IMG/VR virus record: IMGVR_UViG_3300020578_000043
Location: 1-64,000 of that record
Source: a virus
Length of the DNA: 64,000 bases
Direction: 5' to 3' (one strand)
Below, piece by piece: positions 11,303-34,503 of this stretch. The notes under the pieces were generated by a model that saw only the letters and a list, made by a program, of their open reading frames with translations, searched no databases and had not been told where the DNA came from. How positions within the stretch are numbered: position 1 is the first letter of the stretch; every line of letters starts with the position of its first letter. A program made the position numbers and the translations under genes.

Positions 11303-11375
11303 TTATACGTTTCTCTACGCAACATAACTATGTCGACGGCAATCTATGCGACCATCCTCGCAACGATTGACGCCA

Positions 11376-11410
11376 TAAAATAATTAAGGGCCTCCGAGGA
11401 AGCCCTTAAA
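11376..11410 (-). terminator. Terminator after sheath paralog 2
   Basis: TTAAGGGCTTCC-TC-GGAGGCCCTTAA hairpin followed by TTATTTT on the minus strand. Confidence 0.65.
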
Positions 11411-11464
11411 AATTAATTCAATATTTTGACACCTGAATTATTAGGTGCTTTTTTGTGATTTATT

Positions 11465-14400: not shown

Positions 14401-14536
14401 GCGGAACGAAGGCTGGCCCCTTGACTGACGTTCCGACAACACCTGCCGGTACGCCCGCTGGACCAACCTCGACCGGTCCTGTTAGATCAATTTCTCTTGT
14501 CGTTACCCCTGCGCTTCCAAACTTGAGCTGTGCCAT
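11465..14536 (-). CDS. Tail sheath protein paralog 2 (gp18-like)
   Basis: SAGVTTREIDL, KGPAFVP, YPWFAPAG, WGQKT, LDRINVRRLL, FEPN, TIEFVSLDF. Confidence 0.92.
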   Translation of the reverse strand: MAQLKFGSAGVTTREIDLTGPVEVGPAGVPAGVVGTSVKGPAFVPLTYGTLKDFFAKFGESDAKKFGPLAVSEWMRRATAVTYLRVLGVGDGKKRVSSGTTAGDVTSAGFTVGEKQPSSTDGALSSNAYANSGGIPGRTYFLGCFMSESQGSSAFSAAGLQGTGSVNNIVAAAVPIVRGVLMAPSGVILRMSASAVGINSAPPASTLIALDASARGTTLGMMILTSSNVSKQEFTLLLNGHKGTDAAYPNVLTASFDVTAANYISKVLNTDPFKMEQAGHYLAAHWDIHPALAVVTGAGAVASGSIFDTGYRAERSAFLLSGSGARDVGSSTAPNYEGYRDRFSSAKSPWVISQKFGGSPVNLFKLHALDDGAGISNKYKVSIYNIVPSNDPTNKYGSFSLSIRSLTDTDIDQKVFERWEGINLDPSSDRYIAKVIGDINAYYDFDRDDAAQKLVIEGNYELRSRYVRVEVSNEVADASVDPTAVPMGFRGIYHLVTSGSTPLAALGGLDSGSLVSVGGTELRNVVEPPLQFRNHLNDGTGQQTQVNSRYHWGVKFEHITDLSEQNSSILQDKSIHSFTKHFPNHSTVNLNVLIGDNSGVADSAQLGILDADRFCNNLFSLEHIKILTGSNGTVAQNDDWKYADYVRKGNITTDNAAKTRAVAASDLTNSQNRKFLKFSFIMQGGFDGVNIFNQDEADISNAAAVADMNDVNRGRSAGPNVAAYLKALEVMKNTTNVDIQLLAIPGIRVPVITDEAIRSTEERFDALYIMDIEQVDKDGNLINIATATKPSVKETVDQHKARNINTSFAAAYFPDVLMRDPVKTTNTVVVPPSVVVMGALSLNDSIGYPWFAPAGLSRGDLSTTLETSIQLKDADLDSLYDEDINPIYAPATTTRGGTNPKGGVVVWGQKTMLQTASALDRINVRRLLIDVRRQVREIAQTIIFEPNREATLARFTAAVTPRLQRIQALAGLERFRVIIDSSTTTQADIENNTVRGKIFLQPTKTIEFVSLDFVVANNLQQVQ

Positions 14537-14593
14537 TTATCTCGCTCCTACGCTTTGCTGATTAAGTATCAATTTATCTGCGAATTTTCAGTA

Positions 14594-17500: not shown

Positions 17501-17623
17501 AGGACCCTTATTCGATGTACCTATCACTCCTGCAGGAACCCCAACGGGACCTGACGGTGGCGGGACCCTTAACTCAATCTCACGCTCAAAAAACCCAGGA
17601 GACCTAAAAACTTGCTCGGCCAT
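14594..17623 (-). CDS. Tail sheath protein paralog 1 (gp18-like)
   Basis: SPGFFEREI, KGPAFVP, YPWFAPAGFNR, INPIATFP, YGQKTLQ, LDRVNVRRLL, FEQN, AIEFIAIDF. Confidence 0.92.
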   Translation of the reverse strand: MAEQVFRSPGFFEREIELRVPPPSGPVGVPAGVIGTSNKGPAFVPVAVASFNEFTSIFGDLDPKKFGPYAVNEFLKNRTALTFMRVLGAGANKSTTDISTTVSTGRVRNAGFKIEGSVASHDALGRHVGSVQYLVADHTLQASEAYGMPIFTDNDSRSQSSNMNLVRGVVMMASGARMMVLDGNQLVPSAFVGATTLDDAALVKLGKFKLVISSTLGSNFAFDDKLPGVKVYTASMNPSSDDYFGKVLNRDPEKFAQYQHLLYADFAVDDEIATVVNDDYVAVLSGSTNTSNVSGEPSTVFRNAFGGFDTRFTTPKTPHFISQPFGTTEYDLFALEALDDGAYANSLYKVSIANLKVSENEADEYGTFNVQIRDWNDTDINPQILEEFVNCSFNPDADNYIGKLIGDRKVTYDFDQDIVSERRVITSGKYANVSKLVRVIIPTAVEDKKVPAKSLPFGFRGHEVIKTNDSLSDGVTGAKRLAGVFDVPSSGILSQSIVPPVPYRFKVTKGEIPSTTSWDGSPGPQEAASPQFYWGVKFERNDVPLNANLTEVKNPLLESFTKFSGIKKLDVLVTGSGADVLNNNKFSLSKVAFSATAISALTGTIRAHMREAAYVRNANVDPSNYTINDPVLGNRITFASLLSNGQPYEFNKYSSFAKFTSFMQGGFDGLNILDSAAARMNDKATSFETPLGAASTTYVSPGLTTNQAGVGVDNNSVNSYITAVDVMTDALQVNVNLLALPGIREDYITNYTSKKVRDYGLSMYVMDLPNYDDNNNRIYDDSTAKINIENTASTFEDRTFDNNYVATYFPNVYINDAVNNRYVKVPASVAALGAIGFNDRNAYPWFAPAGFNRAALDFVNNVEVRLNVSDRDRLYDARINPIATFPRLGFVIYGQKTLQIRKSALDRVNVRRLLLEVKRLIINIANRIVFEQNTPAVRNKFVADSTLQLSLIQAQAGIEAFQVVMNETNNTQEDVDLNRLNGRIVVVPTRAIEFIAIDFIVTNAGVQFV

Positions 17624-17697: not shown

Positions 17698-19053
17698 TCA
17701 AAAGTCTTTGGTCACGTGATAGGTAAGACCACCGAGCAACTCATCAGGAGTTAACGGCGCCTGATTTGATTTATTGGACCCTGGTTGTGTCACTGAACCT
17801 GGTTTTACAATGGACTCTCCAGACGACTTATTGACAGAGTATACTCTGACGTATCCAGTTTGAGATTTCCCGTCTAATCCGTTCGATGTTACTTTTAGGT
17901 ATTGAGGAAGATTTTGCCGTTGTGTTCTGTTGGACAATGCAGGATCGATCATTACGTTTGGATCCTTCGGGTCATAGTTTCCGATTCCTGTCCTTCGTTG
18001 ATCTGATCTCAGGTTTTTTTCTGCAGAAAGAGGTAACGTCGGATCGTCCGATCCAAGAAATGGATCATTGACGACGTTCGGTAGTTGATCTTGAACTGAA
18101 TTTGATGACGTTCCTACGTCAAAGCTTACAACAGGAGATGAAACGTATCTCTTGATCGGTATTCCTACACCAGGTTGCTGGGTCGCAAAGATGTACGCTT
18201 TAACATTGACGTTAAACTTATACTTGATGATTCTCTCTTCTTGACCCATCTCATCATAATTTCCTTCAGGGTTGTAGGAGTTACCTTCGACCATGGCAAG
18301 GAACCAGTATCCCTTAGATGTGTTTATTCTCCAAGAATTTCCTTGAGGTAAGAAAGAAGAGATCAACTGTTCGATCAACTGATTCATGTGTTGTGTGTAC
18401 TGAGTCCACATGCTGACTTCATAGTCTATCGTGCAGAACTGAGGCGCAGGTATGACTATCGTCTCATATATGTTGTTCTTCTTGATGTCTGCAAGCCAAG
18501 CTCCGTCCCTAAATGTGGGGTCTGTCTCATCCGCCCCGACCTCACGCTCAGTTAAGAGTTGGCCTTCGGCGTGGTCAGAATTAGGATCGACAGCAACGTT
18601 TTTCTGGTTCTTCAACAAGAACCTGTTGATCAGATTTTGATAACCCCTGTCGGACTTGTCTAACCTTCTGTGAATCACGATCTCATTTGTCTGCTGATTG
18701 ATGCCACGACCGACTATGTCTGACGTGGCATCTTGAGTTATGTTCGTCCGCGCGATCGTTACCAGGGGAAGTATCAAAGAATTGTTTCGATCCCTCAAGG
18801 CTCGTTTTTTCTTCAACAATGCCCACTTTTCACCTGATGCGAAGATGACAGGAACCTTCTTGGGCTCTGCATTATTTCCTTCAACTTGCAACTTAATCTC
18901 ATTTTCAAACAATTTAAATAGAGCAACGTCGACATCCTCTATGCCTACTGGTGCGATAGACAGATCAGGTATACCTTGATGCGTGTCGGCATTAATCCCG
19001 ATGACGCCGAAGGTAGACTGACTCTTTGAATTAAAACGTGTTGGCATAATCAC
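17698..19053 (-). CDS. Tail terminator / sheath stabilizer (gp15-like)
   Basis: KVPVIFASGEKW, ILPL, YEVSMWTQY..HMNQLIEQ; lies between neck and sheath genes. Confidence 0.65.
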   Translation of the reverse strand: MIMPTRFNSKSQSTFGVIGINADTHQGIPDLSIAPVGIEDVDVALFKLFENEIKLQVEGNNAEPKKVPVIFASGEKWALLKKKRALRDRNNSLILPLVTIARTNITQDATSDIVGRGINQQTNEIVIHRRLDKSDRGYQNLINRFLLKNQKNVAVDPNSDHAEGQLLTEREVGADETDPTFRDGAWLADIKKNNIYETIVIPAPQFCTIDYEVSMWTQYTQHMNQLIEQLISSFLPQGNSWRINTSKGYWFLAMVEGNSYNPEGNYDEMGQEERIIKYKFNVNVKAYIFATQQPGVGIPIKRYVSSPVVSFDVGTSSNSVQDQLPNVVNDPFLGSDDPTLPLSAEKNLRSDQRRTGIGNYDPKDPNVMIDPALSNRTQRQNLPQYLKVTSNGLDGKSQTGYVRVYSVNKSSGESIVKPGSVTQPGSNKSNQAPLTPDELLGGLTYHVTKDF

Positions 19054-19721: not shown

Positions 19722-20909
19722 TCAACCTATCACGATTCCCTTGCCTAGAGGCATGGGTATGTATCTCAACTGTTTCTGCATGTTTTCTGCTGCAAGAGCG
19801 TCAGCTTCCAATAGCTTCTGATGGGTCAGGTTAGCCAAGAACTCTTTCATTTGAGTCGTCAACTTTTCTTTATCTTCACGAGACTGGGTCAACAAGTCAG
19901 AGCCGTTTAGTTGTAGATCTGCATTTGGAATAGGAATCGTTTGAAATTTTGATCGTATGAGTCCTAATAGCTCTTTGCATAGAGCCAGGGTGTACTGACG
20001 AATCCATTGTTTTCCAGGTTGATTTATTGTGGTGAAGGGAATGTTGCCAAAGGGTATGTTGCTTGGTCCTGATATTCCGTATATCGTGTCATCTTCATAT
20101 GATGTTGGATTCAAGGGATCATGAGGTTCCATCACCTTTACGAACATCTTACCCATCTGAAGATCTGATGAAGGTATGGGATAAATCCTTAGATTGCTTC
20201 CTATGACATCATAACTGTATTGAGATCTTCTGACTCTGAACGCAGTCTCAAGCATTCCTCTTCGCAGAACGTCTTCAAACACAGGCAACACATAAAACAC
20301 AGTTGAGTTAACGTATGATTCATAGTTAAAGTTTGTGGCAAGAAAATTTGTGATGTTCGATGCATTGAGAAGGAACTGCTGCGCTGCAAGAGGCTCAAAG
20401 TGAAATATCTCGACTATCTTTAATTTTCCTTTTCTTCCAGCTGGCAACGTACTGTAGATAGAGCTACCTGACAGGCTTCCAGAAGCGACCTTAAGATCTT
20501 CATACAGGTTATAATCCTGTTTATCCTTGATCAGGTCGATGTAACCTAACGTGGCGTCAAAAGATCCTCCTACATATGCTTCCGTCGCATATGGCTCTGC
20601 CATTCTTAGCAGGTATTCTACTGTTCTCTTGGCATATCTGTTCGTTAGGTCATTCGAACCTGTAGGAAGACCCATGACGTTCGTCAGATCTGACGTTATC
20701 TTCATTTCATGTATCAAACGTGAATATTCACAACATGCTTCTTCGAAACATGCCCAAATCTCTTTCTTTGTCAACTCTACTGACAGGACATCGTCACCTA
20801 GCTTTCGTTTGACGAACGTCACCATACCATCGGCTTCAGTCTGAAAAGCTGAATCAGAATCAAAGAAACCGAACGGCGTGGGGCTTATTGTTGAGGCGAA
20901 TGTTGTCAT
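19722..20909 (-). CDS. Neck protein / head-tail adaptor (gp13-like)
   Basis: KRKLG...VELT, WIRQYTLALCKELLGLIRSKF..IP.P....LNG motifs. Confidence 0.8.
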   Translation of the reverse strand: MTTFASTISPTPFGFFDSDSAFQTEADGMVTFVKRKLGDDVLSVELTKKEIWACFEEACCEYSRLIHEMKITSDLTNVMGLPTGSNDLTNRYAKRTVEYLLRMAEPYATEAYVGGSFDATLGYIDLIKDKQDYNLYEDLKVASGSLSGSSIYSTLPAGRKGKLKIVEIFHFEPLAAQQFLLNASNITNFLATNFNYESYVNSTVFYVLPVFEDVLRRGMLETAFRVRRSQYSYDVIGSNLRIYPIPSSDLQMGKMFVKVMEPHDPLNPTSYEDDTIYGISGPSNIPFGNIPFTTINQPGKQWIRQYTLALCKELLGLIRSKFQTIPIPNADLQLNGSDLLTQSREDKEKLTTQMKEFLANLTHQKLLEADALAAENMQKQLRYIPMPLGKGIVIG

Positions 20910-21363: not shown

Positions 21364-22152
21364 TCAAAGCATCTTATAGGCTTCAAAATGCATTCCATCA
21401 GGTCTATTTGGAAACCATCCGCCCCAATAGAATCCATGGTCATAAGCTATGCCGACCAATTCTCTCACTGAGCCAGTGGCTCCCCGTAAAGCAGGTTGAA
21501 CGCCGAGTTGATTCCATTGAACGTTGATGTCAAACGCCGTTCCCCAGGCATGGTTTGATAAAGCTGTCCTTGACCCTCGAATGAATCTAGGAGCCCATGT
21601 TCCTCCCCATGTCATGATCAAGTATGTCAATCCTGCAGAGTGCCATGCGTCAAATAGATCAAGGAACTGTTTGGACAGCGCTGAATGAATCGTCACGTTG
21701 CCTGATTTTGAGAATCCAGGAATGCTCGTCAAACGTGGGATGTTGACTGTCGTGATGTTCTTCTTTGCCCAATCGCCGATGATCGATATTCCTTCTGGGT
21801 TCGACGTCGTCGGGGCAGGCGTGAAAGAGAACTTTCCAAACATCTTCTCTCTATCAATCGGATTTAGAGATCCATGATTTGGAGGCTGAGGCCAGTTAGG
21901 TCCATTTATGTCCGCCGTTGGATCATCCATCAAGGGAAAGCCACACTGAAGAGCAGCAGAGATCGTTTTTGAACCGACAACGCCATCAGGGGTGAGACCT
22001 TTCCTGTTTTGAAAGTACTTGGTCTCTGTTTCAGTAAATGCATCAAAATCGCCATTGACGATGATGTGGCTGTCTGCAACCAAACCCCTAAGGAAATTTT
22101 GCCACTTTTCGACCTGAAGGCCTGTCGAACCCCTGCGTAAGATCTGCATCAT
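21364..22152 (-). CDS. Endolysin: N-terminal peptidoglycan-binding domain plus M15-family Zn peptidase
   Basis: LRRGSTG..V..WQ..L and FQ...GL.PDGVVG..T (PG_binding_1); SNHAWGTAFDIN and WGG.F...DGMHFE (Peptidase M15). Confidence 0.88.
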   Translation of the reverse strand: MMQILRRGSTGLQVEKWQNFLRGLVADSHIIVNGDFDAFTETETKYFQNRKGLTPDGVVGSKTISAALQCGFPLMDDPTADINGPNWPQPPNHGSLNPIDREKMFGKFSFTPAPTTSNPEGISIIGDWAKKNITTVNIPRLTSIPGFSKSGNVTIHSALSKQFLDLFDAWHSAGLTYLIMTWGGTWAPRFIRGSRTALSNHAWGTAFDINVQWNQLGVQPALRGATGSVRELVGIAYDHGFYWGGWFPNRPDGMHFEAYKML

Positions 22153-23644: not shown

Positions 23645-23860
23645 TCACAGCATTGATGCAACTTTAATCATCTCTTCAATGTCGTTGATAGATTTTTTTA
23701 ATTTTTCTTCAATGGGCAAAATGGCGAACGGTATGACACCCCTTCCGTCAACGCCGTTCTTCTTCCATGTAGAGACAGTGACCAGCAGACTCTCAAGGTC
23801 TTTTTTTGCCTTGAGAAGTGAAGCTATGACGACATGAGACTTGCTGACTATCTTTGCCAC
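23645..23860 (-). CDS. Hypothetical protein (71 aa)
   Basis: GTG-start ORF on the gene-dense strand. Confidence 0.55.
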   Translation of the reverse strand: MAKIVSKSHVVIASLLKAKKDLESLLVTVSTWKKNGVDGRGVIPFAILPIEEKLKKSINDIEEMIKVASML

Positions 23861-23893
23861 TGTTTCATTGCATAGGTATGCAAGCCATTATAT

Positions 23894-23932
23894 AAAACAA
23901 AAAAGAAAAGGAGATCGTATGATCTCCTTTTC
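23894..23932 (-). terminator. Rho-independent terminator
   Basis: Perfect 12-bp stem GAAAAGGAGATC-ATAC-GATCTCCTTTTC followed by a T-run. Confidence 0.85.
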
Positions 23933-23957
23933 AAGGAAGACTAAGTAAGTCTTGTGT

Positions 23958-24224
23958 TCAACGACGCGGCTTGCCAGTGAATTCGTAATGATTGCGAAGC
24001 AGGCGATACAACGTTCGTGCCTCGCGGCCTGTGAACTCAACCGTCTGTTGCTCAAGATCGATAAAGAATCGAGTTGAGTCGTTACGAGAATCTGTCGTCA
24101 CTGCAGCATTGAAACCATCATCACGACGAGCAGTCTCGGTTCGAAGCTTGCCAGTGCGATCAACACGGCTACGGATGATTGCATTCTTGTTCGTTGAAGT
24201 GTAGTTTTTCTTATTCCTTGGCAT
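23958..24224 (-). CDS. Small basic protein (88 aa) in its own transcription unit
   Basis: Arg-rich; GGAGA RBS; upstream promoter and downstream terminator. Confidence 0.75.
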   Translation of the reverse strand: MPRNKKNYTSTNKNAIIRSRVDRTGKLRTETARRDDGFNAAVTTDSRNDSTRFFIDLEQQTVEFTGREARTLYRLLRNHYEFTGKPRR

Positions 24225-24277
24225 ATAGTCTCTCCAATTTTTGGTTTTTTACGATCGGCTCATTTGATGCTTGCCGA

Positions 24278-24306
24278 ATGATAGAAGGATACTTTTACTG
24301 CATCAA
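24278..24306 (-). promoter_or_regulatory. sigma70-like promoter
   Basis: TTGATG-N17-TATCAT on the minus strand. Confidence 0.55.
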
Positions 24307-24347
24307 CATGTACACGATGAGAAATTTGCCTTAAATCGTGAAAGAGA

Positions 24348-25949
24348 TCATTTGCTGTTGATCAATCCTGTGATCATCGACACGGAGTTTCCATACTCTG
24401 AAGTCTTGTTTGAATCCCCACGCGCGGTGGCATATACCGCTGCAGTGGATGAGAATGATGACATTTGATCCGACGTCTTTGATGAATCATCCAATCCCGA
24501 AGCGGGATTGTATCCGACTGCATTCTTTCCTGACATTTTGTTTGCATAGACGTGACCGAACCATCCGTTCTTGATGTAACCCTTTGGATCCATCACGTAT
24601 GTCCAATTACAGGCATCAGGAGTCGCATCAGGCCATGTCGATCCTTGAAGCGGAGTATGGGGTGTGTCGCCGTATGCAACGAACACCGTACTCTGATCGA
24701 GTCGTTCCGTGGGATTCTCAGGATCAACCTGTTGAGACAGGTAGTTGTAGAATCCATTCAACACCTTGCCTAAGTGCTTCGTGGTATTTCTACCTTGGTT
24801 CATCAAGGTCATAGAATCAAAAGTAACGTGTGGATCAGTGAAGGTCGTGTCGCTCGTCGGACCAGGAGATAGAGCTACGATGGCTGTCTTGGACAGACCG
24901 AGCGTGAATGCCTTTGCAACGACGATCAAGGTTCTACCAAATTCTTCAATGCCCTTACGTTGCGCAGGAGTCATGTACGAAGAAGATGAGTTTAGACCGT
25001 CAATCATCTCTTGAACTCCAAAATCGATTAGATCTTGACTGGTCGGAGTCAACTGAGATGCAAAATTGAGACCGATGATCCTTGCAGCATTCTTTGTGAC
25101 TTGCATCTGCGGTGCCCACGAAGTTCTATTCGATGACTTACGAAGTCCTAGTAACGCCTTGTAATATACCTCAAACAGCTCTTGATCTGCCTTGGATGCT
25201 AATGCAAACTGACTTGCGGCGCTGTTGAACAGATCAATCATTCCTGTTGAACTTGGAACAGTTGCGACCTCAGGAGCACCAGGGGCTCGGCCATATTTCA
25301 CGGGATCGATACCTAAAACTGGAACTATAGCTGATGATCCAACTGCACCTAAAGATGCCAATGCAGCCTGCATTGAAGAATTTCCTGAAAGGGCAACCTG
25401 CGAGGCAGGAAATTCCGTATGGGTCTCATCCTTACCTGACATGAAAGCAGAGACAGGATACTTTGGAATTCCTGTTGCATGATCAAACCATGGAGCATCT
25501 GGACCGTAGAAGAATGACCTATCTCCTCCTGACCATCCTTTCACGCCGTTAGGAAGCGTTGGCATTACATTTCCCTTGCCCCATGTATAAGTTCCTCTGT
25601 ATCCGTTAGCCGGATTGTATCCATATTGTTGTGTGTACAGGTAGGAAGAGAATCCACCGAAGTTAGAAGTCAATCCTGAGACGTTGGCATTTTGACATGC
25701 CTTGAAACCAACATCTGCGACAGGCCATAACTCTTGAAACCAAGCTTGTGAACCGTTCGGGGCAGGTACGAGCAATGATCGTCCGTATGTCGATCCTGCA
25801 GCTTCTGCTAGACCTGTGCCTCCCTCATCAGAAAGAAAATTCAGCAAATCTGACCTTGATATTCCCACTGCTGCGGCCATCACACCGCACATCTTTAAAA
25901 AGCTTCTTCTGCGGTCGTTGCGTAGGTCCTTTAGCTTCCAATTGGTCAT
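24348..25949 (-). CDS. Tat-exported protein, DUF1501/DUF1552-like
   Basis: Twin-arginine signal RRRSFLK plus h-region and AEA site; FTDPH and TVFVAYGDTPHTP resemble the DUF1501 WDTH and SEFGRTP motifs. Confidence 0.65.
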   Translation of the reverse strand: MTNWKLKDLRNDRRRSFLKMCGVMAAAVGISRSDLLNFLSDEGGTGLAEAAGSTYGRSLLVPAPNGSQAWFQELWPVADVGFKACQNANVSGLTSNFGGFSSYLYTQQYGYNPANGYRGTYTWGKGNVMPTLPNGVKGWSGGDRSFFYGPDAPWFDHATGIPKYPVSAFMSGKDETHTEFPASQVALSGNSSMQAALASLGAVGSSAIVPVLGIDPVKYGRAPGAPEVATVPSSTGMIDLFNSAASQFALASKADQELFEVYYKALLGLRKSSNRTSWAPQMQVTKNAARIIGLNFASQLTPTSQDLIDFGVQEMIDGLNSSSSYMTPAQRKGIEEFGRTLIVVAKAFTLGLSKTAIVALSPGPTSDTTFTDPHVTFDSMTLMNQGRNTTKHLGKVLNGFYNYLSQQVDPENPTERLDQSTVFVAYGDTPHTPLQGSTWPDATPDACNWTYVMDPKGYIKNGWFGHVYANKMSGKNAVGYNPASGLDDSSKTSDQMSSFSSTAAVYATARGDSNKTSEYGNSVSMITGLINSK

Positions 25950-25961
25950 TTGTTCTCTCCG

Positions 25962-26993
25962 TTATTGACAAGAATGAGCAGCGCTTAACAGCGTTGCGAC
26001 GGCAATGACTCGTTTCTTTGTTAGATCAGATGAGTCACCCACCTTCGCCTTTTGAACGATCAAGTTGCATAACAACATGTGATCATCAGTCGCCGGGATA
26101 CCTATGAGGCAGCTTACTGTCTCTTCGACGCATGATCCGTCAGCAGGATCGAACATGGGTCTATTCTTTCCACCCAACGTGCATGCTGGTGCTTTAGAAG
26201 GATCACCAATGTTTGCAATGATCTGCGGAGCGGATTGAATGAACACGTCCATCATTTTCATTGCAGATGCAGTTGAATGCTCTTCTTTTTCTCCAAGACG
26301 AGAATCAAGCTTGGGATATCCCAATGCATCCTTAGCTGTGAAGTACAAGTAGCCTGCCGTTGACGGTTTAGATACACAATACCCATCGGCTGCATCTGGT
26401 GAGTTGTTTCCGACATCGAGGCAACCTCTGTTGTTCTGATTGAGCTTGTCGTCTTGGTTGCAGAAGCAAGACTCATTTGCTGGGCAAAGCGGATCATTTG
26501 TGCCGTTGGCGTCAGTCACAGCCATCTCGCATGCCGCGCCGCTACCACCGAAGATGCTACCTAACGTCATCGTCTGACCAAAGACGCTGACTTGCGTCGT
26601 ACGAACATCTGAGACATTTCCAGGAGGAATGCTGACCCCTCTGCTTCTCAAGAACGTTCCGAGCTGGGCATAAGAGGGTTTACGACATCCATGCAATCTT
26701 GACATGATCTCATCAGCAGCAGGAACTTCAAATTGAGGAAGAGGATCACTCATCCCAGTTCCTGTTGAGACCGTCGCCTGAGGGGTTTCTGAAGATCCTC
26801 CCATTCCGCTTGTAGTGGACGACGAAGTGACTGCTATGACAGTCGAGTCAGTCACATGTTGAGGGTCTTCAACGCTTGGACAGTCATTTGCTCCAACGTC
26901 AGGTGCCGTTGATCCGCAAGAATTGACCCATAAAAATGTTGCAAATACTCCAAGCAGTGACCATAACAGGTTTTTTGTACGTTTTTTTTGCAT
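25962..26993 (-). CDS. Cys-rich lipoprotein
   Basis: Basic N-terminus, h-region, lipobox VNSC; Ser/Thr/Gly linker; 14 Cys. Confidence 0.7.
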   Translation of the reverse strand: MQKKRTKNLLWSLLGVFATFLWVNSCGSTAPDVGANDCPSVEDPQHVTDSTVIAVTSSSTTSGMGGSSETPQATVSTGTGMSDPLPQFEVPAADEIMSRLHGCRKPSYAQLGTFLRSRGVSIPPGNVSDVRTTQVSVFGQTMTLGSIFGGSGAACEMAVTDANGTNDPLCPANESCFCNQDDKLNQNNRGCLDVGNNSPDAADGYCVSKPSTAGYLYFTAKDALGYPKLDSRLGEKEEHSTASAMKMMDVFIQSAPQIIANIGDPSKAPACTLGGKNRPMFDPADGSCVEETVSCLIGIPATDDHMLLCNLIVQKAKVGDSSDLTKKRVIAVATLLSAAHSCQ

Positions 26994-26996
26994 GGC

Positions 26997-28475
26997 TTAG
27001 AACCTCGTGAAGTCATCTGAAATCAGGACCGTGCGTAGTACCTGTTTTAAGTTATATCCGTTACCCTTAAATTGTGCAACTAGCTTGGACAACGTCACAA
27101 TCTCAGGATTCGGATCCTTCCTATCAGGTAGACTCACCCAGGATCGACCACCCACCTCGGTGATGTCAGGTCGTCCCATTGCATAGTTCCACGCTCGTTT
27201 CACCGCACATTCGATGACCTCATCGTCTTTAGACATCCGTTGACCTAACTCTGTAAGGTTTGACGCAGATCCAGACGTCTCAATGCCGTCGACCCTCATC
27301 ATCTTCTTCCATGCAGTTCCGTTCTGGCCACCGTTTGGGCATTTTGAAGGTTCGATGCACAACCAATCGGACAACTTTGCTCGAGGTGAACCGTTCACCG
27401 GAACGAACACCGAGTATTCCCCTGCTGGTGTCAACATCTGGAAGATTCCCTTTGAGTCAAATTGGCTGAACAAGGGCGCTCTGTGATTCCACGTTGAGTG
27501 ACAGTTGGCGCAGACGTTGCTAGAATTGTAATCATGAAAATCTACCCGACCTCCGTTACACTTACCAGCAATCTCGTTAACGGGCCACTTATTGTTGTAC
27601 CCAGGAATGGATTTTTGATCTCCGCACGGTGGATCAACCGGAGGTTGATCGGTCGGCTCACCGCCTGATTGTTCATTACCGTTTTTGCACAGGAATGTCT
27701 CATGAAAGAAACGATTCCTCCTGAAGGACAGGTTGCCGTAGTACAGGCTTTGAGCACCAGGATCTGTCAAGATTCCTGAATGATTCATCCCGGCAGGAAG
27801 ATTGCTACAAGACCCATCAACAAAGGTGTTGCTTGCAGGATTAAAAGTAGGACATGTATTAGACTGTTGAGTGAGGATGTTACGCCAATCTTTTCCTTCA
27901 TAGACGACCTTTGCCGCAAATGATGGAGCAGTGTCACGAGTCGGTTCACCTGCCGTCGTCGATGCACCGCCCATCTTGAACGTATATTTGAAGAACTCGA
28001 CCAGAGTCGCAGCGAACCGCGGATCGGCAAGCTTCTTATCGATCAATTCCTCATACTTCGCAGCCTGCACGTCGGGAGGAAGATCACCGAGTTCATAGAT
28101 CTCTGACAACGTCGGGACATCTCCAACTAGAAGAATGCTAGCCGTACGAAGAGCTTCTGAGTAGTCGGTTTCCCTTTCGTCTAGTTCTGTCATCTCTTGC
28201 TTCTGTTCTTGACTCGAACCTGTCGAAACCGTCGTCGTCGAGGGTGAGGTCGTGACGCCTGACACTGTCTCTGCAGAAGTTGAAGCGACGGTCGTCTGGG
28301 ATGAGACGTCAGACGTCGAAGGGACATGCGGGGTGGGACAATCTTCAAAGACAGCCGACGTGTCGCCGGCCAGCTTGTAAGGATTCTGACGTTCACAACC
28401 GTAGATCGACAAGGTACTTGCAAGACCAACCGAGATCAATCCATGCTTGATGATATCTTTCTTTTCCATAGCCAT
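26997..28475 (-). CDS. Lipoprotein with c-type heme motif, DUF1549/DUF1588/DUF1585-like (planctomycete/myxobacterial cytochrome c type)
   Basis: Lipobox IYGC, Ser/Thr linker, LRTASILLVGDVPT, YEELIDKKLADPRF, GILT, CANCH, C.VKRAWNYAMGR, F...GYNLKQVLR.V..SDDF. Confidence 0.72.
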   Translation of the reverse strand: MAMEKKDIIKHGLISVGLASTLSIYGCERQNPYKLAGDTSAVFEDCPTPHVPSTSDVSSQTTVASTSAETVSGVTTSPSTTTVSTGSSQEQKQEMTELDERETDYSEALRTASILLVGDVPTLSEIYELGDLPPDVQAAKYEELIDKKLADPRFAATLVEFFKYTFKMGGASTTAGEPTRDTAPSFAAKVVYEGKDWRNILTQQSNTCPTFNPASNTFVDGSCSNLPAGMNHSGILTDPGAQSLYYGNLSFRRNRFFHETFLCKNGNEQSGGEPTDQPPVDPPCGDQKSIPGYNNKWPVNEIAGKCNGGRVDFHDYNSSNVCANCHSTWNHRAPLFSQFDSKGIFQMLTPAGEYSVFVPVNGSPRAKLSDWLCIEPSKCPNGGQNGTAWKKMMRVDGIETSGSASNLTELGQRMSKDDEVIECAVKRAWNYAMGRPDITEVGGRSWVSLPDRKDPNPEIVTLSKLVAQFKGNGYNLKQVLRTVLISDDFTRF

Positions 28476-28611
28476 ATAGACATAGGTACCACAAGAATTA
28501 AAAAAGTATAAATCTGATGTAAACCACGGCGGATTTTATCCGATTTTTCTAGAAAGATCGTCACGTCATCTTAGCAGAAGATGATGAGCAGTGTCGGCCA
28601 CATGCGACACA

Positions 28612-29031
28612 TTATTTCTGCGCGCGGAAGGCGATCGCCTTGACTTCGTCGAGCCACTTCAGAAATAGTTCGCCCGGGCCAACAGGTACATCTGGACCAC
28701 CAGGTTTACTTTGGACCTTCGGGCTGTTTCTATTGACGGCAGCTTCTAAAGCCGCGATATAATTTTCTTTATAATTTTTAATCTCATTTTCATCTTTGTT
28801 TTCATCTTTGGCCATGGTCTCGATGTCTTCGAGCGTCTCGTTGATGCTGTTGGTAAGATAATTGGAAAGGTCTTCATCACTCAAGTCGGGTGAGTACATG
28901 TCAAAGAAGCTTCGCCATAGTTCATTTGCGTCTTTATCCAACAATTGATTGATTGGATCGATACGATCTTCACCTTCATTAACAAACCTTCGCCAGCCCT
29001 CAAATAGAACTTTCATGTCTGCGTTTTTCAT
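28612..29031 (-). CDS. Hypothetical protein, possible internal head protein
   Basis: N-terminal MKVLFEGWRRFVNE leader; acidic. Confidence 0.65.
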   Translation of the reverse strand: MKNADMKVLFEGWRRFVNEGEDRIDPINQLLDKDANELWRSFFDMYSPDLSDEDLSNYLTNSINETLEDIETMAKDENKDENEIKNYKENYIAALEAAVNRNSPKVQSKPGGPDVPVGPGELFLKWLDEVKAIAFRAQK

Positions 29032-29064
29032 ATTGATTATATATACTCACCCCAGGAGACAACA

Positions 29065-30492
29065 TCACGATAAATCGATGACGTATATGTGTGATCCACA
29101 TCCATAAATCCTTGAGACTCTCGCCTCAATTTCAATCTGACGTTCTGACTTACCACCTTTTGCTCTAAACTTGAACCTATCGTAACGAAGTTGGTTATCA
29201 GTGTACCAATAATCTATAGTCGTTGATCCTAGAAAAGAAAACCCTACAGATTTATATCCGCCCCCTTCTCCCACACGTCTATCGACGTACGTCATGATTC
29301 CGCGGTATCCGTTTTTTGCACACCACTCTTTGGCGCGTTTCACCAGCTTAGACAAGCCTCCAGGAACAGAGGTCGCTATAGCCGTGCTGTACCGAGCAAT
29401 TTCTAGGTAACCTTCGTACTTCTTACCGTTCCTCGGAGCACGAAGCGACAGGGCAGCAACGACGATACCGTTCTTATCTCTCAAGCCCCACGTTACCTTG
29501 GACGGGACGTATCCTGCGATGTGCGTAGAATCGAAGAAAGACCTTTGTTCTTGCGTGTTTAATTCGACGACTCTTGTTGACCACGTCTTACACCTGTGAC
29601 GATCCATGACGAGGCGGTGGCGGATCATTGACTCGCATATCGTTCGCTTGTCTCGCCACTCGTCCTCAAAGATCTGCAGCAATTTTATGCCGTTCTTCGC
29701 AGCGAGGACGGATTTTTCTAGATGCTTGTTCTTATCAAAAACCTCTTGTTTAGAACCTTCGCTGTGCCAGTACAACCCATGACACTCTATCCCAAATTTT
29801 TTGGAAGGAACATACACGTCGATTTCCTTCGGAGACATCGCCTTCTTATCACCTGATATCACATCAGGTGCTAGCGATTGGACGAATGTGAACACCTCTA
29901 GTTCCCAATTGGACTTGCTGAATGGGTGGCACTTATAACACCTGCTTCCTCTTTCAAATGCCTGCAGGGTCTTTGGCTGAACTTCTCCACATCGATTACA
30001 TTGAAACTTAAGGTACTGCTCTTGCCGAGAGATGTATTCTTCTAACGGAGTAATGAGGATGAACTCAGATTGCCTCTCCAATAATCTTTCTTTTAGCGTA
30101 GATGTTTCCAACATCTTACTTAAGCTAAGTTTTTCTAGGGTCTCTCGTGTATGGCGGCGACCATAGAATGGGTTACCTTCGCCTGTCATTGATTCAGACT
30201 GGCGCTTTATCCTCGGATCTGTATCCTTAGTTTGCCCCTTATTCCAAGCTTCGGCCTTTCCGCCACGGGCTCCGCCTTCTTTCATAGCGAGACGGGAATG
30301 GTCTTTGCAGAATCTTTTAAAAGAAAAAGAAACGTATCTGACGGAGGATGAACACACTTCGCAAACAGGTTTTTTACCTCCGTGGTATACTTCAACAGTG
30401 TAATCCTCTGATGACAGACCGTGAATTGACCTGATGTGGTTTGTCAGTTTCTTTGCATCATCATGTCGAAAGTCACATAGCCTACAGTCCAT
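29065..30492 (-). CDS. Free-standing Hef-like homing endonuclease (Zn finger, NUMOD3, Vsr/DUF559-like nuclease, GNAT-like C-terminus)
   Basis: CRLC..HIRSIH C2H2 finger; AWNKG and GEGNPFYGRRHT; EIDVYVP..KFGIECHGLYWHS; IFEDEW. Confidence 0.75.
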   Translation of the reverse strand: MDCRLCDFRHDDAKKLTNHIRSIHGLSSEDYTVEVYHGGKKPVCEVCSSSVRYVSFSFKRFCKDHSRLAMKEGGARGGKAEAWNKGQTKDTDPRIKRQSESMTGEGNPFYGRRHTRETLEKLSLSKMLETSTLKERLLERQSEFILITPLEEYISRQEQYLKFQCNRCGEVQPKTLQAFERGSRCYKCHPFSKSNWELEVFTFVQSLAPDVISGDKKAMSPKEIDVYVPSKKFGIECHGLYWHSEGSKQEVFDKNKHLEKSVLAAKNGIKLLQIFEDEWRDKRTICESMIRHRLVMDRHRCKTWSTRVVELNTQEQRSFFDSTHIAGYVPSKVTWGLRDKNGIVVAALSLRAPRNGKKYEGYLEIARYSTAIATSVPGGLSKLVKRAKEWCAKNGYRGIMTYVDRRVGEGGGYKSVGFSFLGSTTIDYWYTDNQLRYDRFKFRAKGGKSERQIEIEARVSRIYGCGSHIYVIDLS

Positions 30493-30611: not shown

Positions 30612-32507
30612 TCAGATGATGTTCATGTCGAGACACGTCACTGTTCCGAAGAAATCGCTGCGAACCATTTTCTTACCGTAGCGAGTCATCACACCCTTAC
30701 GCGGTGTGAAATCTTCCGGTGCGAAGATGGTCGGAGTGACGATGAGCGGAACGTACGGGGCGTAGACGTAGCCGGTCTCGAGGTAGCTGCCGCCCTTGTA
30801 GCCGACGAGGATCTTGTTTCTGACGAAGTAAGGATCCTTGTAGACTGTGAAGCGGTTGCTGAGAGAGCCGATTGCCTCTGCTCCGATTGTGAACGGAGAC
30901 GCGACTTGACCTTCACCGTCGATGGAGAACTTCGGCTTGTAGAGCACCGAAGACTCGAGGACCGTGGCGACGTCCGGGCCGCAAACGAGGAAGTTTGCAG
31001 AGCCGCGGAGTGTCTTGCGGTGGATGGTGTTGGCGACGTCGATGATCGTCTCGACGAGGGTCTCGTACCACTCACGAACTGTACCTGTGAAGGCCGGTCC
31101 GATTGAGAGGGATGAGGCAAGTGTGACCGGTGAACCGGTTGTCTTGTTAACGAACCTGCCTGGAGCACGGCTCCAGTAGTAGTTCGCGCCGTTTGCTTGT
31201 GTGACGAGGTCATTGAGGATCTCGCGGTCGATCTCAAGAGCAATCTGCTCAGAGAGGATCGAGGTGAGCTCGACCTCTGCATCCATTGAGTGGTATGCAT
31301 TGAGGTCTTGTGCGAGTTCCGGTGACCAACGAGCACGTAGCTTGCGGGTCGCCGCGGTGATCGCGAGAGACTCGATCTTGATGTCGATCTCCGGGATTGC
31401 CGGGGACGGTGTTGCACCGAAATCGGACTCGAACGACGGTACCGTGAGGGTCGCACCGGTTCCACCTGAATCAGCGCCGAGGGCAACGACTGAATCAGCC
31501 TTGGCAAAAGTAACGCGACCTGCACCGGCTGTCAATCCCGCCGAGCTGAGACCGTTTGCGCCCTTGACGACGAACTGAACGTGTGTGCCGTTCAATGCAT
31601 CAGGAGTGAAGTATGGAGCAACTGAGTTGCTGAAGTTTCCACGCTTGTTGAGGCGACGAAGGTTAAGAACGCCGCTTCCTCCTTGATATGTTTGACCCCA
31701 TGCCGTTGCATTTCCTCCTAAGCCGCTGAACATTGCGATTTGATCAACTGCGAGAAGATCTGCACCAGACAAAGCACTCGTCGGAACGTAAACGAAGAGA
31801 GCATCGAGAGCGTTGTTTGTGAGATCAGTCTCAACTTGGCTGTCGTAGTCAGCAAAACGACCGTTCGAACCCGAGAACATGCCACCCGAAGAAACGATAA
31901 GACCTGATGTCCATGTATCTCCATTGGTTCCGCCGTAAGCACCAGAATGAACTGTTGCTGCAGAGAAGTCTAGAGCTTGGAGGGAACCGGTAACCTTGGA
32001 ATAACCTGTTCCGACGAGGTCGTACATACCACCAGCTGCAAGAGATCCGGATTGGACTCCACGACCTGTGGGGTTGTTGTAGATAGAGGTACCACGTGAG
32101 TAGGTTGCCTCAGATGACTGACCTGCGGCCTGACCGACGTTGGTTCCGTAGGTGTAATCAAGATAGAAGATGAGGCCAGAGGGGAGACTCATCGGTTGGA
32201 TCGAGACGAGCTCATTGGCGACGAGGCCACCGAACACGCGGCGGACGATTGGGAAGGCGATGTTGCTAAAGCCTTGGATCTGTCCACCGTTGGCAACGTT
32301 GCCGCCGCCTGTTGAGAGAGCTGAGCTCTCCTTCAGGACCTGGGCAGCTTGGTTCTCGAGAAGTTGTGACATCATCTCGCGGCGTTGACCGTCGAGACCA
32401 CGGAGGAGACCGGTGCGGCTCCACTTCTCTGTCAAACGAGCACGCTCAGCACCGACGTGGCGTTCACGGATGCCTTGTGCTAACTGATCAATCGTAAAAG
32501 TCTTCAT
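30612..32507 (-). CDS. Major capsid protein (T4 gp23-like, 631 aa)
   Basis: KW..TGLL.GL, LLENQ, FPIVRRVF..L.A.ELVSIQPM..PSGLIFYL, RKLRARWSPELAQDLNAYH, EIDREI, YAPYVPL, PRKGVMTRY; start moved to ATG 32507 because of the AGGAG RBS. Confidence 0.96.
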   Translation of the reverse strand: MKTFTIDQLAQGIRERHVGAERARLTEKWSRTGLLRGLDGQRREMMSQLLENQAAQVLKESSALSTGGGNVANGGQIQGFSNIAFPIVRRVFGGLVANELVSIQPMSLPSGLIFYLDYTYGTNVGQAAGQSSEATYSRGTSIYNNPTGRGVQSGSLAAGGMYDLVGTGYSKVTGSLQALDFSAATVHSGAYGGTNGDTWTSGLIVSSGGMFSGSNGRFADYDSQVETDLTNNALDALFVYVPTSALSGADLLAVDQIAMFSGLGGNATAWGQTYQGGSGVLNLRRLNKRGNFSNSVAPYFTPDALNGTHVQFVVKGANGLSSAGLTAGAGRVTFAKADSVVALGADSGGTGATLTVPSFESDFGATPSPAIPEIDIKIESLAITAATRKLRARWSPELAQDLNAYHSMDAEVELTSILSEQIALEIDREILNDLVTQANGANYYWSRAPGRFVNKTTGSPVTLASSLSIGPAFTGTVREWYETLVETIIDVANTIHRKTLRGSANFLVCGPDVATVLESSVLYKPKFSIDGEGQVASPFTIGAEAIGSLSNRFTVYKDPYFVRNKILVGYKGGSYLETGYVYAPYVPLIVTPTIFAPEDFTPRKGVMTRYGKKMVRSDFFGTVTCLDMNII

Positions 32508-32553
32508 TGTTTTTCTCCTGTTGCGTATCAAAAAGTTGTTAGAAAGTTGTTGC

Positions 32554-34503
32554 TCACTTGCTGATGCCAGCGAGCTTTGCCCAACGCTCTGCCTCAACTC
32601 CCTCTGACAAGGTCTGTGTTGAAGCGGGGCGAGTTGCCTGTGAAGATGATCCGAACACGCGACCCTCTGTCACAGTCCTACGAGGCTTCACCAATGTCTT
32701 GGAGAGGCTCTCGTAAACGAGCTTCGCTTCGCGAATCGTCTCAGCCGCATCGAGTTGCTCAATTACCTGTGCCTTTTGGCGAGCAGTGAGCGACTCTGTC
32801 TGAAGAAGCTTATTCGTGAAGAGGAGCTTCGCGTTGAGCAGATTCGTTTCTGCCAACTTCTTGCTTAGCGTGTTGTCTGTGCTAGCACCAGGTTTGACGC
32901 GGCTATTTGAGCGAGCGTTGACTCCCTCCTTGAGGGATTGTGAAAGGTTATTGAAGCGAACGACTGAGCGATTGTAACGTTCGGCTGCTTCAGCGTATGC
33001 AGCCTTTAATTGAGCCGCACGGGAAGCTGCTTGTCTTGCTTCAACCAAAGTTGTAGCATCTTTTGTGGCAGCATAAAGCTTCTTTAATTGAGAAGCACGA
33101 AGACGTAATGATTCTTGAAGCTTGAGCTCTTTAGCCATTTGTAGACGAACTGACTCATTGGCAGGTTGTCTTTTCTGGACATTCTTGTCCTTGGTATTGT
33201 GCTCGTCGTTGTCTTTTGCTTGACCCATAGAAACTATTTCGTCCACATCAACTTCTAATAAGTCGTCTTCATCGAGGCATTGTTTAGCTTCCATCTTCTT
33301 TTTAGGTGCTTTAGCAGCAGCGGCTGAAGTTCCTTCATCACCACCGGCCTTATCTGTCTCATCCGTCATAGTAAGCTCGTCGAGATAAGCTTCAACTTTT
33401 GCCATGGCATCAATTTCATCCATGCCATACATTTCCTCGTCCATACCGCATGATGCTTCGGTAAGATCCATGTCTAAAGGTTCACCTTCTTCTTCGGCGC
33501 CGCCGAAGTCATCGAACTCTTCAGGACCAGGACGTTCGCCTACTTCAAGTGCGCCTGATTCTGATTCGTCAGCTTCACGAAGAAGCTTCATGAAAGCGAT
33601 TTCACGACGAAGCATGTTTTCATCGATTTCAACGACGGCATCGTCATCAAGGCCCAGTACTTCAAGAAGACCTTCTTCTTTTTCTGGTTCACCTTCTTCA
33701 CCTGGAACTGCTCCAGCTTTAGAGGCTTCTTCTTCGCCTTCTTCGCCTTCATCAGGTTCTTCGCCTTCAGCGCCTTCTTCTTCTTCGCCCTCACCATCGA
33801 GGACGAGATCTACTGATGCATCATCAAGAACTTCTCCTAGGTCAACACCAGGAAGATCCAGTTCGATGGTAACCTTATCTTCATTTAGTCTTCTTTTCAT
33901 TGTTGTCTCCTGAAGCTTTTCTAGCTTTTCTAAACATTTTCTAACTTTCAAACCGTATCCTAACCTGGTGGTAGGATCATCAATCTTCTTGTCTATGAAC
34001 TCATAGATCACGTCGATCATGTCTCCCAAGTGAGACACATTAGAATCAAACTCTGCTGATTCAGTGATTCGTGAGTCCACCTTCGCCAACGCCTCAACCA
34101 TTTTTTCGACGTAGCGTAGCTTTTGTTCCATTTGGCCGGTGGATGACGGCATCTTGGCAGAGACGAGGTTTTTTACGGAAGCATCGAAAGACTCAACCTT
34201 CGCTGAAGGTGCTAGTTGAGCAAGGTCGACGACTAGTTTTTTTGTTGTACGTCTTTTAACTTCTTCGACGTCTTTACCATTGGGTTCAACTATAAGTTTT
34301 TCGCCTTTATCACCACAGCGATTGACGACTTCTTCTTCTTCCACTTCAAGATCTTCGACCGCTTCTGCCAAAAGTTCTTTTTCAATCAGCTCCCGAATGC
34401 GAGGAGCGACCGCCTCGACGACAGCACGTTTCGCATTGTCTTCGGCGATTTCCTTGACCTTCTTCAAATCCGCAATTGCTTCTTCATAGAGCTGCTTTGA
34501 CAT
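32554..34503 (-). CDS. Prohead core scaffold protein (gp22-like)
   Basis: Highly acidic coiled-coil directly upstream of the capsid gene; LAETNLLNAKLLFTNKL, RWAKLAGI C-terminus; many L-x-E sites. Confidence 0.8.
   Translation of the reverse strand: MSKQLYEEAIADLKKVKEIAEDNAKRAVVEAVAPRIRELIEKELLAEAVEDLEVEEEEVVNRCGDKGEKLIVEPNGKDVEEVKRRTTKKLVVDLAQLAPSAKVESFDASVKNLVSAKMPSSTGQMEQKLRYVEKMVEALAKVDSRITESAEFDSNVSHLGDMIDVIYEFIDKKIDDPTTRLGYGLKVRKCLEKLEKLQETTMKRRLNEDKVTIELDLPGVDLGEVLDDASVDLVLDGEGEEEEGAEGEEPDEGEEGEEEASKAGAVPGEEGEPEKEEGLLEVLGLDDDAVVEIDENMLRREIAFMKLLREADESESGALEVGERPGPEEFDDFGGAEEEGEPLDMDLTEASCGMDEEMYGMDEIDAMAKVEAYLDELTMTDETDKAGGDEGTSAAAAKAPKKKMEAKQCLDEDDLLEVDVDEIVSMGQAKDNDEHNTKDKNVQKRQPANESVRLQMAKELKLQESLRLRASQLKKLYAATKDATTLVEARQAASRAAQLKAAYAEAAERYNRSVVRFNNLSQSLKEGVNARSNSRVKPGASTDNTLSKKLAETNLLNAKLLFTNKLLQTESLTARQKAQVIEQLDAAETIREAKLVYESLSKTLVKPRRTVTEGRVFGSSSQATRPASTQTLSEGVEAERWAKLAGISK

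Follow-up and report, generated by a model that had tools for sequence, protein, structure and literature searches.

A host-derived cassette of three exported proteins, probably serving an envelope function of the host, in a T4-like lake phage

Positions 1 to 64,000 of the IMG/VR virus record IMGVR_UViG_3300020578_000043, a record of 78.7 kb estimated to be 22% complete, form one strand-coherent block of phage genes (hereafter the window, 64,000 nt). Within it, three open reading frames (ORFs), A, B and C, are sited at 24348–28475 between a Gp23 capsid gene and the neck genes. The explanation that we find most credible is that A-B-C is a functional auxiliary cassette, derived from freshwater Polyangiaceae (Myxococcota), that upholds or boosts an envelope function of the host. 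We hold its provenance and functionality with high confidence, and the cassette probably matters for infection; the biochemical role that we propose for it is tentative. The three genes are:

26997..28475, minus strand: gene A, a 492-aa lipoprotein with a signal peptide and lipobox (Cys27), a Ser/Thr linker of ~65 aa and a domain of ~400 aa
25962..26993, minus strand: gene B, a 343-aa Cys-rich lipoprotein of no known family
24348..25949, minus strand: gene C, a 533-aa protein exported by twin-arginine translocation (Tat), with an alkaline-phosphatase-superfamily core, from a family without a Pfam model

A reading of the window made earlier from its letters alone (the sequence-only reading) had described three adjoining, co-oriented genes between capsid and neck genes with gaps of 3 nt (A/B) and 12 nt (B/C), and the ORFs lie exactly so.

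Homologue clusters number more than 100 for each of the three proteins, and members of the three families are found together on single contigs. A genome scan that took one genome per species returned 80 loci, all of them from Myxococcota (Polyangiaceae, Byssovorax, Polyangium, Kofleriaceae and Chondromyces apiculatus DSM 436). The sequence-only reading had suggested looking for the same synteny elsewhere, and tblastn found the order and adjacency of A-B-C to be identical in ~75 Myxococcota (Polyangia) loci and 20 IMG/VR loci, a statement that covers every locus long enough to judge. In 60 Myxococcota loci a further gene, Z, lies directly upstream of A and encodes a lipoprotein of ~340–400 aa that belongs to no Pfam family and contains CxxCH once or twice (for example L031:4630-5832 and L066:4786-5970). 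Z was not found in the window, the 60 cellular loci serving as a positive control, nor in the four phage records searched, a search made without a positive control. Other neighbours in the cellular loci are lineage-specific (type II secretion system E/F-like genes, DUF3570, Ser/Thr kinases) and gave no functional clue. The cellular loci closest to the phage (L022-L030) encode C proteins that are 61–76% identical to the phage protein. Since they have no phage genes nearby, a GC content of 63%, and flanks encoding ClpB, DnaJ, HAD, GST, NuoL/M/N and GH35 proteins, these loci are chromosomal.

A maximum-likelihood tree of C (95 rows, root not inferred) placed the 18 phage rows in one clade, with a support of 87 in the Shimodaira–Hasegawa-like approximate likelihood ratio test (SH-aLRT). 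This clade was sister, with joint support of 100, to five copies from two freshwater Polyangiaceae metagenome-assembled genomes (MAGs) that are 75–76% identical to phage C. Next out came two copies from Lake Baikal-type MAGs (100) and then three further Polyangia copies (100), and the phage clade together with these cellular copies was nested inside Polyangiaceae sequences. The 28-row subclade that holds the phage clade has no Z. A and B repeat the identity ranking of C across loci, which argues that the unit moved together. These data support freshwater Polyangiaceae well as the donor lineage; the sequence-only reading had proposed a host origin and had named Planctomycetota and Myxococcota as the groups with such genes, and of these the donor lies in Myxococcota, not in Planctomycetota. 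Parsimony favours movement from cell to phage, which the tree does not formally establish for the split of the phage clade from the five sister copies. One freshwater Polyangiaceae MAG held three Z-less, phage-like modules (L022, L024, L027) together with one copy of the other paralogue (L051); several copies in one MAG indicate that the module is multicopy in the likely host lineage.

The phage copies have the composition of phage genes. GC content is 47–50% in the cassette and 61–63% in cellular copies, and GC at third codon positions is 0.43–0.51 in phage A, B and C, as in other phage genes, against 0.77 in the cellular copy. Pairwise ratios of nonsynonymous to synonymous substitution (dN/dS) among phage copies are 0.05–0.12, with dS saturated at ~2, all phage copies examined have unbroken A, B and C reading frames, and the export signals and motifs are all kept. 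Phage A-B-C is thus under purifying selection.

Relatives of the phage were located in IMG/VR via the neck protein, and the trio recurs in at least 20 viral contigs. A-B-C is present in all five loci that span both the capsid and the neck genes; of the 25 loci that extend 9 kb or more upstream of the neck gene, 13 have C and 12 show none. Whole-record searches found related phages without the cassette, including a 278-kb, 84%-complete record, and the cassette is therefore accessory in the wider phage group. Such patchiness would also be seen if the trio were neutral passenger DNA without a role in infection, moved for instance with the adjoining HNH homing endonuclease gene, and a mobile HNH gene does adjoin the cassette in some genomes. 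However, the cassette is present with or without the HNH gene beside it, its composition is fully ameliorated, and the intact frames, retained motifs and low dN/dS at saturated dS are joined by the finding that a related phage carries a different version at this site. We consider neutral carriage improbable.

This second version is in G006, a 200-kb related phage record with a capsid protein 79% identical to that of the window. Between its capsid/HNH genes and a conserved 88-aa ORF, the same position as in the window, G006 holds a different A-B-C, with these coordinates in locus L194 (G006:C1:101000-119000):

10169-11335, minus strand: G006 gene A, 388 aa
9428-10153, minus strand: G006 gene B, 241 aa
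8030-9409, minus strand: G006 gene C, 459 aa

G006 C is 34% identical to window C and 58–67% identical to the other cellular paralogue group, a placement made by BLAST identity, outside the tree; cellular members of this G006-like group carry Z. The G006 trio keeps both lipoboxes, RRKFLR and CANCH, and its A protein passes the thresholds for PSCyt2 (29.9 versus 29.8 bits) and PSCyt3 (28.8 versus 27 bits). A 133-aa membrane-protein ORF (11399-11800 of L194) replaces a 139-aa ORF of the window. We read the two versions at one site as independent capture or as cassette replacement. That two host paralogue versions occupy one site argues more strongly than anything else for a benefit of A-B-C, without Z, to the phage.

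The closest homologues of the trio are annotated as proteins of Proteobacteria, Deltaproteobacteria or Polyangiaceae MAGs, as would be expected had bacterial DNA entered the viral contig by chimeric assembly or mis-binning. Many independent IMG/VR contigs nevertheless show this arrangement flanked by phage genes at either end, and the GC content of the cassette is phage-like rather than cellular. The sequence-only reading had also pointed to the junctions as the place to confirm the assembly: both (24348 and 28475) are crossed with 0 mismatches by contigs of four lake runs not flagged as a possible source, and bridging in independent runs shows that the locus is not a chimera. A chimeric or mis-binned origin was rejected on these three grounds and has a negligible probability. 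At least 23 lake-water metagenome runs from 2018 contain a near-identical copy of the 5.4-kb stretch around the cassette (window 23800–29200), judged by a match of half or more of the sampled words, which indicates a persistent phage population; no RNA run was among those listed.

Within gene B (26413–26514), the contigs of all four independent lake runs end at ~26442–26480. In three runs depth spikes at this point, to 17–26x against ~7x, with a lesser spike in the fourth; position 26481 carries a T>G variant. This pattern suggests a short segment common to co-existing strains (microdiversity).

A and C had no match in 50,697 GenBank phage records, B not having been searched there, in line with the view of the sequence-only reading that the trio is not standard phage cargo. 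In the literature searched, neither a phage-borne PSCyt/DUF1501-like cassette nor Polyangiaceae phages were found described, and we know of no cultured phages for Polyangiaceae.

All three products carry the export signals that had been assigned to them, lipoboxes in A and B and a Tat signal in C, and these are conserved in homologues. The residues of A and C discussed below are encoded at:

28395..28412, minus strand: lipobox of A, L22-S-I-Y-G-C27, with C27 kept in at least 90% of 31 aligned sequences
27498..27512, minus strand: CANCH of A (C322–H326), a candidate covalent heme-attachment motif near the beginning of a predicted helix (residues 320–330)
25893..25913, minus strand: twin-arginine motif RRRSFLK of C, residues 13–19
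24828..24836, minus strand: D372-P-H374 of C, invariant, aligning with the DUF1501 'WDTH' and a candidate metal ligand pair

Protein A starts with MAMEKKDIIKHGLISVGLASTLSIYG, directly before the lipid-bearing C27, which conforms to the PROSITE-type lipobox pattern, which fits 100 of 119 full-length A homologues. The Ser/Thr linker of ~65 residues follows this cysteine, and residues 1–92 are disordered in the AlphaFold2 (AF2) model, the mean confidence of which (predicted local distance difference test, pLDDT) is 75. A passes the Pfam gathering cut-off for PF07624 (PSD2/DUF1585; 29.0 versus 25.8 bits, residues 405–436), a family that many A homologues carry in precomputed annotation. Two further similarities are sub-threshold: PF07583 (PSCyt2/DUF1549) at 19.7 bits against a cut-off of 29.8 (E 9e-4), over the N-terminal third of the model only, and PF07627 (PSCyt3/DUF1588) at 14.3 bits against 27, over residues 310–346, which include CANCH. 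Cellular A homologues are flagged PF07583. Thus, where the sequence-only reading had seen segments like DUF1549, DUF1588 and DUF1585, the last passes and the first two fall short, and a place for A in the PSCyt/PSD domain world is supported.

C322, C325 and H326 of A are invariant in 31 of 31 aligned phage and cellular sequences, as are N330, H331 and R332, and CxxCH occurs in 118 of 120 A homologues, always as a single copy, the remaining two being fragments. The CANCH motif that had been noted in A is therefore a conserved feature of the family. Only this motif and the weak PSCyt3 similarity point to A as a putative c-type cytochrome, as the sequence-only reading had termed it, and heme may be bound covalently at the CxxCH; no cytochrome fold was recognised. 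The best match of the A model in the PDB (Z-score 5.2) was a 45-residue, three-helix piece away from the CxxCH, and the best Foldseek E-value was 2.1, which does not show that the fold of A is new. PDB sequence-profile searches with the A and C alignments gave only chance-level matches.

Protein B has a lipobox ending ...FLWVNS before the lipid-bearing Cys26, which is invariant in 22 of 22 aligned sequences. The N at position -2 is atypical and is the sole deviation from the PROSITE-type pattern; among 117 B homologues, 87 match the strict and 106 a relaxed lipobox pattern. A Ser/Thr linker follows Cys26, and B has 13 further invariant Cys residues as well as invariant H101, H239 and H305. No Pfam, NCBIfam, PHROG or PADLOC family was found for B, and the Atlas cluster that holds it is mostly viral. 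Its structural look-alikes in the Atlas are PSD1, PSD2 and PSCyt proteins, at weak template-modelling (TM) scores of 0.42–0.46 obtained from a low-confidence B model. That A and B together might represent a split DUF1549-DUF1553 protein is a lead from this modelling, not a result.

Protein C passes TIGR01409 (Tat signal; 18.9 against a cut-off of 16.7), and PF10518 matches 17 of 33 members of its family. R14 and R15 are invariant in 33 sequences, the RR motif is present in 115 of 121 homologues, and the conserved L47-A48-x-A50 is likely a signal-peptidase site, judging from the sequence. The AF2 model of C has a pLDDT of 82 and a predicted TM score of 0.80, with a large helical insert (~residues 234–350) modelled partly at low confidence. 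In an exhaustive VIA-align comparison with 48,161 PDB representatives, the top 50 all belonged to the alkaline phosphatase superfamily (Z-scores 8.2–11.6 over 213–280 residues, root-mean-square deviation 4.1–7.0 Å with only one above 5.2 Å, identity 4–12%). They include sulfatases, ENPPs, cofactor-independent phosphoglycerate mutase (iPGM), PafA, EptA/MCR-1 and LtaS-type enzymes. Foldseek scores were weak (E 0.14), so that the usable scores came from VIA-align, and every Foldseek match listed to ~rank 20 was again from the alkaline phosphatase superfamily. The model of C thus shows an alkaline-phosphatase-superfamily core fold, and the invariant Asp/His residues of the protein are H177, D372, H374, D428 and D441.

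The relation of C to DUF1501 and DUF1552 was assessed by hhalign against profiles built from bona fide genes of Polyangia genomes. C aligned with DUF1501 at a probability of 10.8% (E 0.0029), motif to motif, D372-P-H374 pairing with 'WDTH' and GDTPHTP with 'GDFGRTP'; it aligned with DUF1552 at 10.5% (E 0.003) over the C-terminal half of C; and the control, DUF1501 against DUF1552, gave 89%. The DUF1501 set accounts for 26 of the 30 Atlas clusters nearest to C by language-model features (highest score 0.90). C appears to be a remote, un-modelled relative of DUF1501/DUF1552 and is a member of neither: the fold, the motif pairing and the language-model features favour its earlier description as DUF1501-like, and the family profiles do not. 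The only Pfam matches in the C family are Tat-signal models, ten more distant relatives likewise have no Pfam family, and C contains neither the HXXSHH motif nor a formylglycine motif (C/S-x-P-x-R). PHROGs held no family for A, B or C, NCBIfam matched the Tat signal only, and PADLOC matched none. In a set of 1.84 billion proteins, the C family amounts to only 369 representative clusters. Next to it stands a sister tier of ~400–440 aa proteins (P0430-P0495), which match the profile of C in its C-terminal half (E 1e-56 to 1e-33). The seven of them that were sampled have no Pfam family either, so that the tier adds another undescribed branch to the DUF1501-like group.

Pairs of PSCyt2-PSD1 (DUF1549-DUF1553) and DUF1501 (PF07394) genes occur in Planctomycetota, Verrucomicrobiota and Myxococcota, and their function is not known (PMC5615132). 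As in these pairs, a gene for a secreted PSCyt/PSD protein stands upstream of one for a Tat-signal, alkaline-phosphatase-fold protein. The PSCyt2 segment of A (sub-threshold in the window, passing in G006), the nearest language-model clusters of C and the hhalign motif pairing (DPH/WDTH, GDTPHTP/GDFGRTP) add to the likeness. By contrast, C fails PF07394, no PSD1 or PSCyt1 was detected, A is far smaller, A and B are lipoproteins, and the Cys-rich B lies in between as an extra gene.

The second canonical kind combines PSD5-PSD4-PSCyt3-PSD2 (DUF1595/1592/1588/1585) with DUF1552/HXXSHH (PF07586). Here the likeness is that A ends in a PSCyt3-like segment with CxxCH and then PSD2, the order found in these partners, that the C-terminal half of C aligns weakly with DUF1552, and that C and the DUF1552 proteins alike have a Tat signal; unlike these pairs, C fails PF07586 and has no HXXSHH, A has neither PSD4 nor PSD5, and B is without a counterpart. 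Both kinds, PSCyt2-PSD1 followed by DUF1501 and PSD5-PSD4-PSCyt3-PSD2 followed by DUF1552, are found elsewhere in the same Polyangia genomes, separate from the trio, which bears out the analogy that the sequence-only reading had drawn to such uncharacterised pairs. We see A-B-C as a third, smaller and divergent variant of the theme of a PSCyt/PSD protein with a Tat-exported alkaline-phosphatase-fold protein, in which A mixes a PSCyt2-like N-terminus with PSCyt3-like and PSD2 segments and B is an addition.

Set against the alkaline phosphatase superfamily itself (sulfatases, NPP/ENPP, cofactor-independent PGM, EptA/MCR-1, LtaS), C shares the core fold and has its conserved D-x-H and Asp residues in equivalent regions. 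It differs in its 4–12% identity with no profile-level sequence match in the PDB, in having no formylglycine motif and no identifiable nucleophile, and in its large helical insert at ~234–350. Phage auxiliary metabolic genes for periplasmic functions, such as the pstS/phoA-type phosphate-acquisition genes of cyanophages, are known, and the trio resembles these in its host derivation, T4-like genome, purifying selection and periplasmic export. Unlike them, it consists of three genes in one operon, two of them for lipoproteins, with an uncharacterised biochemistry and a Myxococcota donor, it exists in two paralogous versions in related phages, and its A and C are unmatched in the GenBank phage genomes searched.

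On these grounds a mechanism can be proposed. The host would export C, pre-folded, via Tat, the signal being evident and the route presumed. Host Lgt and Lsp would lipidate A and B, which would then be sorted to the outer membrane, as both have a residue other than Lys at +2. In the periplasm, C may be a metal-dependent hydrolase or transferase of phospho- or sulfo-esters, with H177, D372-x-H374, D428 and D441 as candidate ligands, and A, possibly with covalent heme at its CxxCH, could together with the disulfide-rich B tether C or present its substrate. The phage copy would most likely sustain or boost an existing envelope function that raises phage yield, nutrient-ester scavenging or envelope-polymer turnover being the leading guesses. 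The physical redox/metallo-enzyme complex envisaged by the sequence-only reading is inferred from the fixed synteny only, and energy support, envelope remodelling and superinfection exclusion, which that reading had offered as roles, are candidates; a complex prediction for A(96–492) with C(53–533), run with alignments, scored 0.00 and gave no verdict either for or against binding.

Several observations weigh against this explanation. Besides the existence of related phages without the cassette, the genes are placed in the late structural block with no recognisable promoter upstream: no exact ATANTTA motif was found within 145 nt upstream of A, and sigma-70-like matches were only at chance level. 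A late-block site does not obviously fit nutrient scavenging. The A model resembles no cytochrome c and no solved fold. Neither PF07394 (DUF1501) nor PF07586 (DUF1552) matched C or any of 33 family members at E<=1, and the hhalign probabilities for C are just ~10%. The strand-1 loop, NGGPSHLDTWDP in DUF1501, is NGSQAWFQELWP in C, where the Ser, His and Asp of DUF1501 are missing and neither the Asp nor the Ser/Thr/Cys expected at this place is present, so that neither a canonical nucleophile nor a second metal site was identifiable; C may have an altered catalysis or may serve in binding instead.

The main rival to a sustained host function is receptor or envelope modification for superinfection exclusion. 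A, B and C would remodel or mask a phosphorylated or sulfated surface polymer (lipopolysaccharide or exopolysaccharide) that serves as the phage receptor, so that the infected cell is shielded from further phages or progeny are kept from re-adsorbing to debris. Phage-encoded lipoproteins commonly act in exclusion, the fold of C matches EptA, MCR-1, EptC, LtaS, GacH and BcsG at Z-scores of 8.7–9.7, and EptA/MCR-1, LtaS and BcsG are envelope-modifying members of that fold. The two phage versions, moreover, each resemble a different host paralogue group, as expected for a host-specific envelope fit. However, C is without the membrane domain of EptA/LtaS-type transferases, its best fold matches are soluble sulfatases and NPPs, and no PADLOC defence family was matched. 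In ~75 Myxococcota genomes, the trio is also a chromosomal operon, conserved where no phage context exists, so that its primary role is cellular. We regard exclusion as a less likely explanation that still deserves weight, and continue to favour the support of an existing envelope function.

The region around the cassette contains the following features:

30612..32597, minus strand: Gp23-type major capsid protein, the upstream boundary of the locus (PF07068, 2.5e-77)
29065..30492, minus strand: HNH/NUMOD3 homing endonuclease, present in some relatives and missing in others
28612..29031, minus strand: 139-aa acidic ORF between the HNH gene and A, with no family found and not common to the second phage version
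23958..24224, minus strand: 88-aa ORF downstream of C, kept in all related phage loci
23905-23932: terminator-like hairpin after the 88-aa ORF
21364-22152: endolysin with M15 peptidase and peptidoglycan-binding domains
19722..20909, minus strand: neck/head–tail adaptor gene, the downstream boundary of the region
17698-19053: gp15 sheath stabiliser

These neighbours (Gp23, endolysin, neck adaptor and gp15) identify the phage as a T4-like myovirus, and its capsid protein is at most 49% identical to that of any deposited phage. The same-strand site between capsid and neck genes, ~2 kb from the M15 endolysin gene, could also speak for a role in lysis or the virion, the lipoproteins acting as spanin-like, envelope-disrupting proteins or as virion components, and two lipoproteins do recall o-spanins. 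Yet proteins of 492, 343 and 533 aa, one of them with a Tat signal, do not look like spanins, full-length chromosomal orthologues stand in non-phage contexts, no PHROG structural or lysis family was matched, and exported, lipidated proteins cannot enter virions assembled in the cytoplasm. Such a role has very little probability.

The capsid ORF encodes 661 aa, of which the Gp23 profile spans only ~residues 317–650; an N-terminal extension of ~300 aa lies outside the profile. Directly downstream of the capsid gene, the HNH/NUMOD3 gene is kept at 86–95% identity in L010, L012, L013 and L016 and at 63% in G006, and is missing from L003, L004, L006 and L008; it behaves as a mobile element adjoining the cassette insertion site. 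Three tail-sheath ORFs of ~1000 aa (window 8168–17623) cross-match the same regions of related contigs at 25–87% identity, which is consistent with their being tandem paralogues.

A bolder possibility, which we think doubtful, is that A-B-C is a host-matched envelope-remodelling machine that is swapped as a cassette, the paralogue version in each phage being that of its own Polyangiaceae host, as the complex must dock onto host-specific envelope partners or polymers. If so, the trio would be a determinant of host range or infection productivity, and it would be the first genetically minimal, transferable form of the PSCyt/PSD and DUF1501/DUF1552 systems and would open the function of those systems to experiment. 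The phage lipoproteins might even act on neighbouring cells, since myxobacterial kin cells exchange lipoproteins of the outer membrane.

In Planctomycetota, Verrucomicrobiota and Myxococcota, few families of unknown function are as large as the PSCyt/PSD proteins and their DUF1501/DUF1552 partners, and B and C represent undescribed families without a Pfam model. The retention of the trio under strong purifying selection, in two phage versions, indicates that the unit works on its own without Z, and the trio offers a compact target for biochemistry and structure. The cassette also provides gene-based evidence of the host, freshwater Polyangiaceae, for an abundant, uncultured clade of ~200-kb T4-like lake phages. 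It extends the auxiliary genes of phages to a multi-component exported envelope system that needs the Tat and lipoprotein pathways of the host and possibly depends on cytochrome c maturation as well.

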